A DNA stretch of 32,000 bases from an uncultured bacterium (GCA_964565945.1 CAZMGY010000025.1:1-32000), one strand, 5' to 3'. Shown: positions 27,501 through 32,000, numbered from the stretch's first letter. Notes: generated from the sequence alone by a model not told the origin. Numbers and translations are program-made.

Positions 27501-29078
27501 TTAACCACAATTGATCCCTTTCCATAAAATCCATGGTCCACCAGAACCCGCTTCAACAGATTCTTTATGATACTTACCACATCCACCCCATTTGTTATAA
27601 GGCGTCACAGAAGCATCACCGTCATCGTCCACTTTAGACTTTGCCACAATCCCATTCAATAAGGTGGGAACAGGATCTGAAAGCTCAATATGTCCTCCTT
27701 TGGGACCCAAAAACACGCGCCCCGTTAATTGCCCTTGCTTAATTTCTTGCAAATACTCCGTTCCAACTGTTAACCCCATTCCTTTAGGGTCTTCCATACC
27801 CCCATAAGCATTCTCGGCCAAAAAGCCATCGTCTACCATGGCAATCAATTCATCCAAAGTTTTATCTCCAGCCGTAAAGTAGGTGTTGGTTTGGCGAGCC
27901 ATAATCGGATTACGCCACGACTCCCTCTTGCCATTCGATTGGCGTGGCGACTGGCCATTCACATCACCAACCAGCGAACTTATCAAATCATTCATCGGCG
28001 TTTGCAAATACCCTTTGTCTAAAATGACATGTTCTCGAGCCAACTGACCTTCGTCATCAAAAAAGTGGGATCCATTTTGCCCATAATTCAACTTACCCAT
28101 ACGAAAGACCGCAGCATTATTCACAATGCTGGCTTGTTCATTTCCAACCGGAGTCCCCTCTTTTTTAAGGTCTGGGGCACAACTACGTCCATAACGGCAG
28201 GTATCTCCTTCTTGGGTATGCCCAAAAGCCTCGTGCGCAATGACTCCTGTCACATCGGGTCCAGTAATCACCTGATAGCGACCTGGCTTCAAGAGCTCAG
28301 CGCCCTCAATTTTGACAGACATCTTTGCAAGCTGCTCTAAATCTGCATCACTCAACGTTGCTGCTTCAAACCCAGCCATACCTCCCGAAATCTCCCGCAC
28401 AGTACGTCCTTTGGGAGAAACAGCATAAGCATAAGCTAGCGATGTTAACAGGGCTTGTGACATATTCTTTTCACGATCGATGAAAATCTTGGTTTTGATT
28501 TTCTGCCTCAAAAGCACCCCCACCATATTCGCACTATCACTGGCCTTATCTTTAAGATAAGTTTTCATGTCACGAGCTTTTTGACTCATCCAAATCAAAT
28601 CGGTTTCTTCAGGATCTATTTCGAAAGGTGTGCCAAAATGAACTTCTGTTTGCGAACTTAAACCTTGAGGCAATTGCTCTTTCATAAGCGGGTCCAATTG
28701 AGACAAGTGTTCATCAGCCCAAGCTATCGGAACATAATTGATCTGTTCCAACAAAGAAGATCCTTCCACATCTCCAACAAAACGCAAGGTTTCTTCGCGA
28801 AACTTTTGAGCCTTATGAATCAAATCATTTTGCTCTAATTGATTCGTGGCGCATTCAAAATTGTGGCCACGAATCAACAGACGCATCACAAGTCCACGAT
28901 CACACTTGACAACAACAGAATCGGTCAAGGAAGCACTAACCGACTTTTGCGCCAAATCATCCAGAGTCACAAACACATAACCATCGTGACCTTCTTGCAG
29001 GATATCTAAAATATGTGGCATAAATTCACGTATACGTTGCAAATGTTTAGGAAATTTAACTTTGTTCATTGCGTTCAC
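27501..29078 (-). CDS. tldD: TldD-like metalloprotease (TldD/PmbA family)
   Basis: It has the HEAFGH zinc motif and a C-terminal GGCGK-type Gly-rich block. It is paired with a second family member upstream. The start is GTG 29078 (GTGA overlap) or ATG 29069. Confidence 0.82.
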   Translation of the reverse strand: MNAMNKVKFPKHLQRIREFMPHILDILQEGHDGYVFVTLDDLAQKSVSASLTDSVVVKCDRGLVMRLLIRGHNFECATNQLEQNDLIHKAQKFREETLRFVGDVEGSSLLEQINYVPIAWADEHLSQLDPLMKEQLPQGLSSQTEVHFGTPFEIDPEETDLIWMSQKARDMKTYLKDKASDSANMVGVLLRQKIKTKIFIDREKNMSQALLTSLAYAYAVSPKGRTVREISGGMAGFEAATLSDADLEQLAKMSVKIEGAELLKPGRYQVITGPDVTGVIAHEAFGHTQEGDTCRYGRSCAPDLKKEGTPVGNEQASIVNNAAVFRMGKLNYGQNGSHFFDDEGQLAREHVILDKGYLQTPMNDLISSLVGDVNGQSPRQSNGKRESWRNPIMARQTNTYFTAGDKTLDELIAMVDDGFLAENAYGGMEDPKGMGLTVGTEYLQEIKQGQLTGRVFLGPKGGHIELSDPVPTLLNGIVAKSKVDDDGDASVTPYNKWGGCGKYHKESVEAGSGGPWILWKGINCG

Positions 29079-30445
29079 GCTCCAACAATACTCACACCAT
29101 TCATAATCAACATCTTTGAGGGACCATAATATCCCTTACCTTCGTAAAAGCCTGTACCTGGAAAGTTTACGGTGCCCAGCTCTTTAGAAAAATAGCAATG
29201 CTTTAAATTTTCACGCACTTGTCCCGAGACAACCCCTCCCTTAAACAAAGTAACAGAACCATCCTCGTTATACTGCTTAGCCAGCTTAATCTCACTGCTC
29301 CAAGTGAGCTTGTTATCGTCCACCAATAGAGATGAAAATTTGATCACTTCAATCACGTTGGGAACTTTATACCTCAAATCATCAACCGAATACTCCCCCG
29401 AAGAAAGCACCATGTTTCCTAAAATACCGTTGGCCTGCTTGCCTAAATATTGTCCAAAACGATTGCCAACGATTTGGGTTTGAATTTGCCCTTCCACAAT
29501 CACATCCGCTGCTTGCGCAATCAACCCATCTCCTGTGTAAGGCGAGCTGTCCACCATAGCCGGCAAAAAGGGATCCAATCGCAAATGAAGCGCGTCCCCT
29601 TCACTTTCCAGTCGATCTCCCTCTTGCAAACAAGGAAATTTGTAATATTCATTGGCACAGTTCAGCTGAGAACGTAAGGCCGCCATAAACGAAGAAATCG
29701 CATCTTCGTTCACTAAAACCACGGCCGACTCGCTTGTGGTCGGCTCCTGGGTTTGCCCCAAAATCAATGTTTCCTCGGCAGTTTTACGAATAAATTCGCT
29801 TACCTTCAAATCATCATGCGACATAGAAGTGAGCACATTGTTCACTTCTTGGTTTTGATGGTCAGGTGTTTTTTCCATCGCCACTTCAAAATAAATATCC
29901 GATAGGTCTTTCCGCATCTGAACACCCGTGCTTGAAAAACGCTGAACACATGATTTGCAGACATAAAGTTCCGCAGTGGTCACCGCAACACCCTCGAGCC
30001 CAACCATCGTTTGTTTAGCTTCGCGCTCGATGTCTAGCACAACAGCTTGTGGATCTTGCAAAATAGCATCATCAGCCGTCTTAACCCTAGCATAATCTTC
30101 TTGAGGAGGTTGGACAGGATCCCACATTTTATTAGGATTATTTTGAGCCATCTGAATGGCCAGCGCCAACTGCTCATCCAAAGGAGCATCACAATCCACA
30201 TCAAGACTAGCTTGTCCAATCATACCTTCTTGATCGACAGGTACCAAAACCTCTAAGGCATAGGACACTTCGTCCACTTGACGAATTTGGTGCGGACACA
30301 AGATAAGCTCTTCGTCGCTCTGATACAAACGCTGAAAGCTCTCACGAAAAACAGAGCGAATTTCCCACCAAAACAACTGCTCACTCTGCTGCTCCAAATA
30401 TAAATGTAACTCTTGAAAAAAACTGGTTTGCATCGACGTCAACAT
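29075..30445 (-). CDS. pmbA: PmbA/TldE-like partner of TldD (divergent)
   Basis: It has the family size and operon position, lacks an HExxxH motif, and has a C-terminal GxGFYEGKG Gly-rich segment. I prefer the ATG at 30445, because the GTG at 30457 sits inside the AAGGGGTGA Shine-Dalgarno sequence. Confidence 0.65.
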   Translation of the reverse strand: MLTSMQTSFFQELHLYLEQQSEQLFWWEIRSVFRESFQRLYQSDEELILCPHQIRQVDEVSYALEVLVPVDQEGMIGQASLDVDCDAPLDEQLALAIQMAQNNPNKMWDPVQPPQEDYARVKTADDAILQDPQAVVLDIEREAKQTMVGLEGVAVTTAELYVCKSCVQRFSSTGVQMRKDLSDIYFEVAMEKTPDHQNQEVNNVLTSMSHDDLKVSEFIRKTAEETLILGQTQEPTTSESAVVLVNEDAISSFMAALRSQLNCANEYYKFPCLQEGDRLESEGDALHLRLDPFLPAMVDSSPYTGDGLIAQAADVIVEGQIQTQIVGNRFGQYLGKQANGILGNMVLSSGEYSVDDLRYKVPNVIEVIKFSSLLVDDNKLTWSSEIKLAKQYNEDGSVTLFKGGVVSGQVRENLKHCYFSKELGTVNFPGTGFYEGKGYYGPSKMLIMNGVSIVGA

Positions 30446-30481
30446 AATGAATTTCACCCCTTTTTCAACACGACAGGGGGC

Positions 30482-30509
30482 ATTATAACATAAGCAAACA
30501 CTTTGTCAT
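30482..30509 (-). promoter_or_regulatory. Candidate promoter of the pmbA-tldD-nlpD operon
   Basis: The minus strand reads ATGACA-16 nt-TATAAT about 35 nt upstream of the pmbA start. It is divergent from ssrA. Confidence 0.4.
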
Positions 30510-30559
30510 CGCGCCCGTGGGGAACACAGGCTGTTTCGCTACATCTATCTTAAAAAATA

Positions 30560-30568
30560 TGTTATACT
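30560..30568 (+). promoter_or_regulatory. Candidate extended -10 (TGtTATACT) for ssrA
   Basis: atatgTTATACTttatgcttgtgg ends 12 nt before the mature tmRNA 5' G. No clear -35 was found. Confidence 0.35.
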
Positions 30569-30580
30569 TTATGCTTGTGG

Positions 30581-31016
30581 GGGGGCGACCAGGTTTCGAC
30601 CGGGGTCATTGTGCTCCTGGTGGCATGTCGAGGACTCAGGTGGCCTCGTAAAAAACCTGAACTTTGATAGATGCTAAATCATCTGTTGAAAATAAGGGTG
30701 TTGCCGTGAACGATGCTAACAACGTGATCTCTTTGAACATGTTGAACAACATTCGTCCTATGGCAATGCCCTTCGCTGCGTAATATACGCTGCCGTCTGG
30801 TGCATCCTCGCCTATAGGGCTGCATAGGGCGTTCGGTTATATAGGCTAGCAAAGCAATTTTATCTGAGGTTGTGGCGCGAAGTTTTATCAGGCTAGTCGT
30901 TGTGATAATCCTGTCTTTCGGAGTACACAAAGGCGAATGTAAAGGAAAGACTAAGCATGTAGGCACCCAGAGTATAAACCTACGGGACGCGAGTTCGATT
31001 CTCGCCGCCTCCACCA
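30581..31016 (+). ncRNA. ssrA: tmRNA (SsrA), one-piece, CCA encoded
   Basis: The 5' end is GGGGGCGACCAGGTTTCGACCGGGG and the 3' end is GGACGCGAGTTCGATTCTCGCCGCCTCCACCA. The acceptor stem has a G3:U pair. A PK1-like GTCGAGG...GGCCTCGTAAAAAACCTGA segment parallels E. coli. The internal tag frame ends ...PFAA-TAA. Confidence 0.92.
30673..30783 (+). other. tmRNA tag-peptide reading frame (resume codon uncertain)
   Basis: The frame from GCT 30673 (12 nt after PK1, preceded by uagau as in E. coli) reads AKSSVENKGVAVNDANNVISLNMLNNIRPMAMPFAA-TAA. Later in-frame Ala codons at 30703 and 30715 would give 26- or 22-residue tags. Confidence 0.55.
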
Positions 31017-31023
31017 ATCGAAA

Positions 31024-31072
31024 TGCTAGACGAACCCTCGTCCATAAAGAGTTCCGGACTAGCATTTTTTTT
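31024..31072 (+). terminator. Candidate ssrA terminator
   Basis: An outer TGCTAG...CTAGCA stem encloses an inner GACGA-accc-TCGTC hairpin and is followed by T8 (31065-31072). The structure is weak or atypical. Confidence 0.35.
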
Positions 31073-31081
31073 GCCTTTTTT

Positions 31082-32000
31082 TCAGATCTTCCACCAGCAA
31101 ACGTATTGGTCACGCCTCCTAAGGATAAAAATGATGATTTTTCTCCAAGCTCGGGAGTTACAGTTTGGGAGTTTCCTGAGTGGTTCGTAAGTCAAGATGT
31201 AAAAAAAGGTGATTCTAAAACAAGATCACGTTATCTTGTTCATAAAACATCATTAAAGAGAAATAAATCTGAAGGTTTAGATCGTAATAAATACTCGGTT
31301 GTACCTGTTCGTTTTGTAAGAGCATGCAGAAAAGGACATATTGGTGATATAAACTGGCCAAAATTTGTCCATGGCGATGTTGACTGTAAAAGACAACTTT
31401 ATATGGAAGAAAGAGGAAGAAGTGGTGACCTTTCAGAAATATTTATAAAGTGTGAATGTGGAAAGTCGCAATCATTACTTGAAGCAAGTAAAATGGATCA
31501 ACATGCAATTGGCCCATGTGATGGGCACAGGCCATGGCTTGGTAACTGGGCAGAGGAAAAATGTGGAAAGCCAAATCGGTTATTAATTAGAAATGCTAGT
31601 AATGCCTACTTTCCTCAGATGATGAATGTTATTTCAATTCCTGCGAACGAAGATATTATTTCTGTTGATCTCGATAAAGTTTGGAATGATGTTAAAGAAG
31701 TGGAATCTTTAAGTGAGTTAAATCAACTTTTTAAATTTAATAAAAGTGCAAAAGAAAAACTATCTGCATATACTCCCGAGCAGATTTTTTCTTCTATAGA
31801 AGAAAAAAAGAATAATTCAAGAAATAACTCTTATAAACCTGTAAAGCAAGCTGAACTTGAGACACTTTTACTTAGTACCGATGAAATTGGAGAAGATAAA
31901 CCTGATGGTGCTTTTTTTGCAAGAAATCTTCCTCGTGAGAAGTGGGATCGACCTTGGATGGAGACTATTGACCGTGTGGTCTTAGTTCACAGACTAAGAG
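31082..32000 (+). CDS. Cys/His-rich protein resembling the N-terminal half of DISARM DrmB (DUF1998-type) defence proteins; the 5' end is apparently missing and the 3' end runs off the window
   Basis: The frame (phase of 31082) has no stop from 30845 to 32000, so it is absent from the ORF track. It contains VPVRFVRACRKGHIGDINWPKFVHGDVDCKRQLYMEERGRSGDLSEIFIKCECGKSQSLLEASKMDQHAIGPCDGHRPWLGNWAEEKCGKPNRLLIRNASNAYFPQMMNVISIP...ETIDRVVLVHRLR. Downstream of the tmRNA terminator the only in-frame start-type codons before Met 31397 are TTG 31106 and TTG 31325, and neither has a Shine-Dalgarno sequence. The family call is from memory of motif patterns and has not been searched. Confidence 0.5.

Follow-up and report, generated by a model that had tools for sequence, protein, structure and literature searches.

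A long open frame follows the tmRNA gene (ssrA) at the end of a 32,000-nt stretch of DNA from an uncultured bacterium (GCA_964565945.1 CAZMGY010000025.1:1-32000), hereafter the window, and the question is whether this frame represents a working defence gene, the edge of a mobile island or a remnant. An earlier note on the same sequence had described it as a DrmB/DUF1998-like fragment fused to the tmRNA flank and had offered two readings, namely the eroded attL-side edge of a defence island or an unconventional DUF1998 system whose remainder would lie past position 32000. The analyses presented here favour, with a probability of about 85%, that the frame is a 5′-truncated and frameshifted pseudogene of drmB, a gene that occupies fourth place in a class 1 DISARM operon acquired by horizontal transfer. 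The features on which the argument relies are collected in Table 1.

Table 1. Features at the ssrA junction and in the sequence recovered beyond the window (coordinates counted from the first nucleotide of the window).
Feature	Coordinates	Strand	Evidence or remark
ssrA (tmRNA), intact, CCA encoded	30581-31016	+	ARAGORN and Rfam RF00023 agree
Spurious 446-aa ORF	30902-32000, stop 32240-32242 outside the window	+	Automatic gene callers; start GTG 30902 inside the tmRNA gene
Terminator-like hairpin and T-runs, 3′ of ssrA	31020-31085 (hairpin and T-run 31020-31072)	+	RNA fold
Junction spacer, ssrA terminator to drmB homology	31086-31112		Unmatched in the intact locus L010
drmB, 5′-truncated, putative pseudogene	31113-32000, onward to 32707 in the extension	+	NF038324, PADLOC, L010 alignment
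R.HpaII stub (PF09561)	Extension, after drmC	Opposite strand	Profile positions 1-39 of 359 left
C5 methyltransferase (PF00145, 335 bits), P0251, 349 aa, open	33842-34891 (= L014 3283-4332)	-	Pfam
vsr (PF03852), two in-frame stops	Extension, flanking the C5 methyltransferase	Opposite strand	Pfam

We first describe the tmRNA gene and its surroundings. The gene matched Rfam RF00023 with 160.4 bits over the complete model (positions 1-374 of 374), encoded its terminal CCA (...CCTCCACCAATCG) and shared 72% identity with the tmRNA of a relative, L025. In that relative (L025 1618-2029) the terminal CCA was apparently not encoded (...GCCGCCTCCAAAAATAC). The tag reading frame of the window tmRNA probably occupies 30673-30783 on the plus strand and reads AKSSVENKGVAVNDANNVISLNMLNNIRPMAMPFAA up to the stop, which at 36 residues is unusually long, while ARAGORN itself called a 12-residue peptide further downstream (AAVWCILAYRAA). 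The 36-residue reading starts where Rfam aligns the resume region and its two ends resemble those of the ARAGORN tag of L025 (AKDATMKENMGTVVPMNFIVPPMPMFLAA). The run of G at the 5′ boundary of the tmRNA (30579-30585) was seven nucleotides long in the window and in contig L004 and eight in L001, L002 and L006; this difference between samples is either a length polymorphism or a homopolymer miscall.

The gene order changes at this point. The 24 window ORFs that reach 150 aa or more were without exception located on the minus strand, so the flip of polarity to the plus strand at ssrA that had been described is real. The Pfam labels of the window genes were housekeeping ones (IleRS, Lgt, LspA, RluD-like/pseudouridine synthase, TsaD, the HrcA-GrpE-DnaK-DnaJ operon, PmbA/TldD and others), in agreement with the earlier observation that no DrmA-like helicase precedes the frame and that no integrase is present. 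The GC skew was about -0.2 across the minus-strand block (1-30500) and +0.10 to +0.17 from the tmRNA onward (30501-32000), and its change of sign coincided with the switch of coding strand. Downstream of ssrA, the segment 31014-31085 folded with -16.2 kcal/mol (z = -3.2 against shuffles). The "weak terminator" proposed at this site therefore stands as far as a real hairpin with its T-run is concerned, but the consensus terminator scan made no call on it because the loop is too long. The 97-nt spacer that follows ssrA found no match in the intact comparator locus L010, described below, or in the other loci compared.

We then examined the frame itself. The frame of position 31019 is free of stops up to 32000 (327 codons) and contains every one of the Cys/His motif strings that had been quoted for it. 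Its opening lies within the tmRNA gene, after a last in-frame stop at 30842. As had been noted, no in-frame ATG or GTG lies between the terminator and 31397, although the first in-frame ATG is located at 31403 and not at 31397. TTG 31106 is the sole canonical in-frame start between the end of the tmRNA and that ATG, and the start-codon scan detected no Shine-Dalgarno-like sequence upstream of it. The 446-aa ORF of Table 1 was called on contigs L001, L004, L014 and L016 and has a database entry, P0002, which showed 99% identity over 71% of the query.

The in-window fragment matched the NCBIfam model NF038324 (DrmB_fam) with 203.9 bits (E = 5.1e-60), its residues 6-298 aligning to profile positions 70-376 of 604. 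The only reason why this value stays below the curated cut-off of 240 bits is that the window cuts the match off at profile position 376. The PADLOC DrmB model also recognised the fragment (2.8e-20), whereas the Pfam scan of the same fragment returned no match, since the C-terminal position of the DUF1998/MZB domain places it past 32000. When the sequence beyond the window was added and both frameshifts described below were repaired, the NF038324 score rose to 508.4 bits over profile positions 69-604, the DUF1998/MZB domain (PF09369) was found with 33.6 bits (gathering score 24.2) and chain B of PDB 7S9V, which is DrmB in the solved Serratia DrmAB structure, was matched with 5.5e-79. PADLOC scored the extended locus with 2.2e-76 for DrmB and 2.9e-60 for DrmC. 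The assignment to the DrmB/DUF1998-type family made in the earlier note is right, and the family signal far exceeds chance.

In order to place the fragment within a complete gene, we turned to an intact copy. A protein search retrieved P0001, a 599-aa protein with 90% identity to the window DrmB, encoded on four metagenomic contigs (L010-L013). L010 (ENA ERZ27316648, contig k141_24839) carries a complete class 1 DISARM operon, drmD-drmMI-drmA-drmB-drmC, with its five genes intact; PADLOC scores were 774 bits for DrmD, 1211 for DrmMI, 996 for DrmA and 281 for DrmC. Contigs L011-L013 carry this operon as well. The segment 31113-33466 aligned to L010 10200-12618 with 86.5% DNA identity over 2.35 kb. 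At the protein level, the identities to L010 were 90% for DrmB and 86% for DrmC, and the GC content of L010 is similarly low (35%). Position 10200 of L010 corresponds to codon 67 of drmB, so that the in-window part runs from codon 67 to about codon 362 of the 599 in the intact gene, and the sequence upstream of 31113 showed no similarity to any part of L010. The shared homology ended just past drmC, and the downstream neighbours of the L010 operon are unlike those of the window locus.

Compared with L010, the locus lacks drmD (an SNF2 helicase), drmMI (an N6-adenine methyltransferase), drmA and codons 1-66 of drmB, that is, at least 10.2 kb of upstream operon as measured on L010. The remaining DrmB homologues listed were 577-611 aa long and all carried the conserved N-terminus that is missing here. 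Hence, the N-terminal truncation proposed from the sequence was confirmed: about 66 residues are lacking relative to intact homologues, including the 90%-identical P0001, and the DNA homology starts at codon 67. The alignment to full-length homologues that had been suggested as a check agreed, since all the listed ones extended about 66 residues further.

The sequence past 32000 revealed further damage. We recovered it by searching for exact copies of the PmbA gene nearby, which led to contigs assembled independently from public sequencing runs (Logan), and the locus was extended by 3.4 kb, up to coordinate 35443, through contig L014. Contig L004 was identical to the window over 27888-32000, and L001 presented a single difference, at 31684, in the overlap after 30620. 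In drmB, an additional A in an A-run caused a +1 frameshift at 32215, after which the frame stops at 32240; a 1-nt deletion (-1 frameshift) at 32432 restored the frame, and the homologous reading ended at 32707. The PF09369 domain lies past 32000 and 3′ of the +1 frameshift and would therefore not be translated. The gene that follows is drmC, which also matched the NCBIfam model DISARM_DrmC_I. It carried two nonsense codons, TAG at 33001 (TCT in L010) and TAA at 33235 (AAA in L010), and a 62-nt deletion at 33356. The order drmB to drmC and the overlap of both genes were retained. The description of the gene as eroded was accordingly right but understated, with two frameshifts in drmB and two stops plus a 62-nt deletion in drmC.

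Every lesion (frameshift, stop or deletion) was carried by every contig reaching that position, and the sequence was identical in all five independent runs that reached both frameshifts, which makes a recurrent sequencing error very unlikely. An alternative genetic code was considered for the in-frame stops and rejected, because the core genes read normally in table 11 and L010 presents TCT and AAA at those codons. A putative strain-level rearrangement near tRNA-Met/tRNA-Leu was also discarded as a gene-calling artefact, contigs L016, L017 and L019 being colinear with the window at 99.98-100% identity. Contigs from many independent runs all ended at window position ~111 and at ~35443, bounding a block of ~35.3 kb, which suggests that repeats, possibly IS elements, are present on both sides.

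Relative to the L010 copy, dN/dS was 0.07 for drmB (dS 0.68) and 0.13 for drmC. Such low ratios against an intact copy indicate that most of the divergence arose under selection and that, compared with the separation of the two copies, inactivation was recent; they are not proof of present constraint, being expected when inactivation is recent. The DISARM core trio is not intact in this locus, drmA being absent and both drmB and drmC disrupted, and the window gene does not hold a complete DrmB coding sequence with a start codon and the DrmA-binding N-terminal region. Judged from its sequence, the window gene is a pseudogene of the DrmB family, neither a working member nor a new arrangement.

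We next asked where this segment came from. The GC content of 31017-35443 was 33.7%, compared with 42.3% in the core, and the GC3 of drmB was 0.22 against 0.40 +/- 0.035 in eleven core genes. The 32-35% GC that had been estimated near the junction was too low, the computed values being 37.8% (31001-31500) and 36.0% (31501-32000), but the windowed GC and codon composition, whose computation had been proposed, did shift at the junction instead of running flat. The closest proteins also belonged to unrelated lineages, as DrmB was 67% identical to a protein of a Bacteriovoracaceae MAG and the methyltransferase encoded further downstream was ~80% identical to Flavobacteriia enzymes. In the relative L025 (DnaK 83% identical), the one relative available for an empty-site comparison, pmbA-ssrA is followed by a 332-nt spacer and smpB-ffh, and defence genes are absent; in the window and its extension neither smpB nor ffh was found. 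Composition and the presence of smpB after ssrA in L025 agree with the foreign origin proposed by the earlier note, and horizontal acquisition of the defence segment at or near the 3′ flank of ssrA is supported.

In L022 a transposase abutted pmbA and contig L029 ended at that point, neither being usable for the comparison of ssrA flanks; rve or mutator-type transposases were found in this same neighbourhood in both. The gene order around P0136 differed from that of the window. A scan of GTDB representative genomes with PmbA gave best relatives of 34-37% identity (Leptospiraceae, Reinekea), and no near empty-site genome among them.

The acquisition could have taken the form of an integrative island inserted at the 3′ end of ssrA, which would have served as the attachment site; the segment next to ssrA would then be the attL edge of the island, whose integrase and attR would lie past the recoverable sequence or would have been deleted, the integrase perhaps together with drmD-drmA. 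Such an arrangement would fit the start of the foreign segment only 97 nt past the CCA (drmB homology at 31113), its composition and the relative in which smpB directly follows ssrA and defence genes are lacking. In addition, tmRNA genes are well-known integration sites for islands. However, we found no integrase gene in the window or up to 35443, no direct repeat of at least 10 nt of the ssrA 3′ end in 31017-35443 and no partial tmRNA in the extension (Rfam, E <= 0.1). Moreover, the 3′ end of ssrA is nearly identical to that of L025, so there is no visible sign of its replacement, and the rve-type transposases near pmbA in relatives, together with contigs that all break at the same two points, make IS-mediated rearrangement an equally available route. 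We thus regard integration at ssrA as possible but somewhat doubtful. Of the attL proposal, the foreign segment at ssrA holds, while ssrA-targeted integration is unproven, the recovered 4.4 kb containing neither integrase nor repeat. Since this reading concerns how the DNA arrived, it is compatible with the interpretation of the frame as a drmB pseudogene.

Beyond drmC, the extension contains a second set of defence genes. The C5 methyltransferase lies between a vsr gene and an N-terminal stub of R.HpaII (Table 1) and is the only open frame in this group of five broken defence genes. It lacks the 72-aa N-terminal extension of the Flavobacteriia enzymes to which it is ~80% identical, which are ~420 aa long. 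PADLOC scored it with 292 bits as DrmMII, the C5 methyltransferase of class 2 DISARM, and with 390 bits as a type II MTase, and drmE was not seen in the locus. The higher type II score, the R.HpaII and Vsr flanks and the class 1 context of the nearest intact drmB led us to conclude that the enzyme most likely belongs to a separate restriction-modification module. Possibly it has been retained as an orphan methylase. The 180-nt tail of the extension presented no match in L010 or other loci. A broader scenario would regard the whole segment as the stump of an ssrA-targeting mobile defence island, so far uncharacterised, in a little-known marine and probably host-associated PVC lineage, which would have shed its nuclease and helicase effectors and kept the C5 methyltransferase as a domesticated orphan. 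We consider this unlikely; if true, it would offer a snapshot of defence loss with the epigenetic mark retained during host adaptation.

The preferred reading, a decayed drmB at the margin of a deleted operon, can be put in terms of a sequence of events. A defence island with a complete DISARM operon would once have adjoined ssrA, and at least one deletion, of 10 kb or more, would have taken drmD, drmMI, drmA and the first part of drmB. The deletion edge would have come to rest just outside the ssrA terminator, because a closer loss would harm an essential gene, and its position beside the hairpin would produce the apparent "fusion" to the tmRNA flank. The comparator behind this history belongs to another organism and is not a sister strain that has kept the island intact, and the drmB fragment could already have been truncated on arrival. 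Class 1 DISARM (drmD-drmMI-drmA-drmB-drmC) has been characterised in Serratia sp. SCBI, including the DrmAB structure (PDB 7S9V/7S9W; Bravo et al. 2022, PMC9142583). The formation of the DrmAB heterodimer is essential for DISARM defence, and the C-terminus of DrmA wraps the entire N-terminus of DrmB (PMC9142583). The remnant would yield no functional DrmB and cannot operate as a DISARM system, since it has no start codon, no DrmA-wrapped N-terminal region and no DrmA partner, and meets the stop at 32240 before DUF1998/MZB.

The remaining interpretations are less compatible with these data. A residual role, either as a shortened protein with zinc ribbons, translated from TTG 31106 or ATG 31403 up to the stop at 32240, or as a regulatory ssrA read-through transcript, would draw on the N-proximal Cys/His clusters in frame to 32240 and on the low dN/dS against the intact copy. 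We judge it very improbable, because those ratios are expected after a recent inactivation, no ribosome-binding site was found, a hairpin and T-run separate the fragment from ssrA and the heterodimer in which alone DrmB acts (PMC9142583) lacks its DrmA partner here.

The idea that the frame starts a functional, unconventionally organised DUF1998 system, with drmB first, a non-canonical start and its partners downstream, took its appeal from the 327 open codons reaching the window edge. The shorter PADLOC DrmB model PDLC02584 (445 positions), which aligned from fragment residue 95, might also be cited in its favour, as its length implies that shorter DrmB subtypes exist. In contrast, the present gene is of the long subtype, the 90%-identical relative being a 599-aa protein in a canonical drmD-drmMI-drmA-drmB-drmC operon. 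The +1 frameshift leads to the stop at 32240 before DUF1998/MZB, drmC is interrupted by two stops and a 62-nt deletion, and no helicase was encoded within 3.4 kb 3′ of the window, drmA being absent from window and extension alike. Past 32000 there follow the remainder of drmB and then drmC, both pseudogenised, and a restriction-modification module in decay; this refutes the proposal of the earlier note, and we consider a functional system of that kind extremely improbable. Finally, an assembly chimera or binning artefact at the tmRNA-drmB junction might be suspected from the composition shift and from an organism whose only known sequences come from metagenome or host-associated assemblies and which has no entry among the GTDB r232 species representatives, but it can be dismissed with near certainty because the same 151-nt junction sequence (30990-31140) was identical in 10 distinct Logan contigs, one per run and from several accession series.

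Regarding the host, the window DnaK showed 83% identity to that of the 'PVC group bacterium (ex Bugula neritina AB1)', which corresponds to the AB1_div bin from the bryozoan Bugula neritina (Miller et al. 2016, PMC5041132). The source is an undescribed marine lineage of the PVC superphylum, possibly host-associated, with AB1_div / candidate division NPL-UPA2 as relatives. The value of this locus is mainly one of annotation, as an open frame of ~330 codons beside a tmRNA gene resembles an odd defence gene and yet is most probably a pseudogene, and a spurious 446-aa protein starting within the tmRNA gene has already entered the protein database through automatic gene calling. It also illustrates that an island undergoing decay can end up with its 5′ edge abutting an essential RNA gene's terminator. 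The locus adds one example of defence decay, from an uncultured marine PVC bacterium, in which a class 1 DISARM and an HpaII-type restriction-modification system were affected and the methyltransferase alone stayed open. It opens no new mechanism and constitutes another, apparently dead, instance of the known DISARM/DrmB.

Besides L010, three known systems can be compared with this arrangement. Among the genomic islands and prophages integrated at ssrA are E. coli CP4-57 and Vibrio cholerae VPI. Their defining integrase and duplicated ssrA 3′ segment were not found here within the readable 4.4 kb, and the shared traits are a foreign, low-GC defence cargo located directly 3′ of the tmRNA gene and missing in one relative. 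The HpaII-type type II restriction-modification systems with Vsr (vsr, M, R) resemble the downstream genes in that a C5 methyltransferase is flanked by a Vsr gene and the N-terminal stub of R.HpaII; here, R is reduced to that stub, vsr carries two stops and M is devoid of the 72-aa N-terminal extension. Of class 1 DISARM as found in Serratia, this locus presents only the last 1.9 genes, both disrupted, drmD, drmMI, drmA and drmB codons 1-66 being gone, while drmB and drmC are homologous to their counterparts and keep the gene order and the overlap of that operon.
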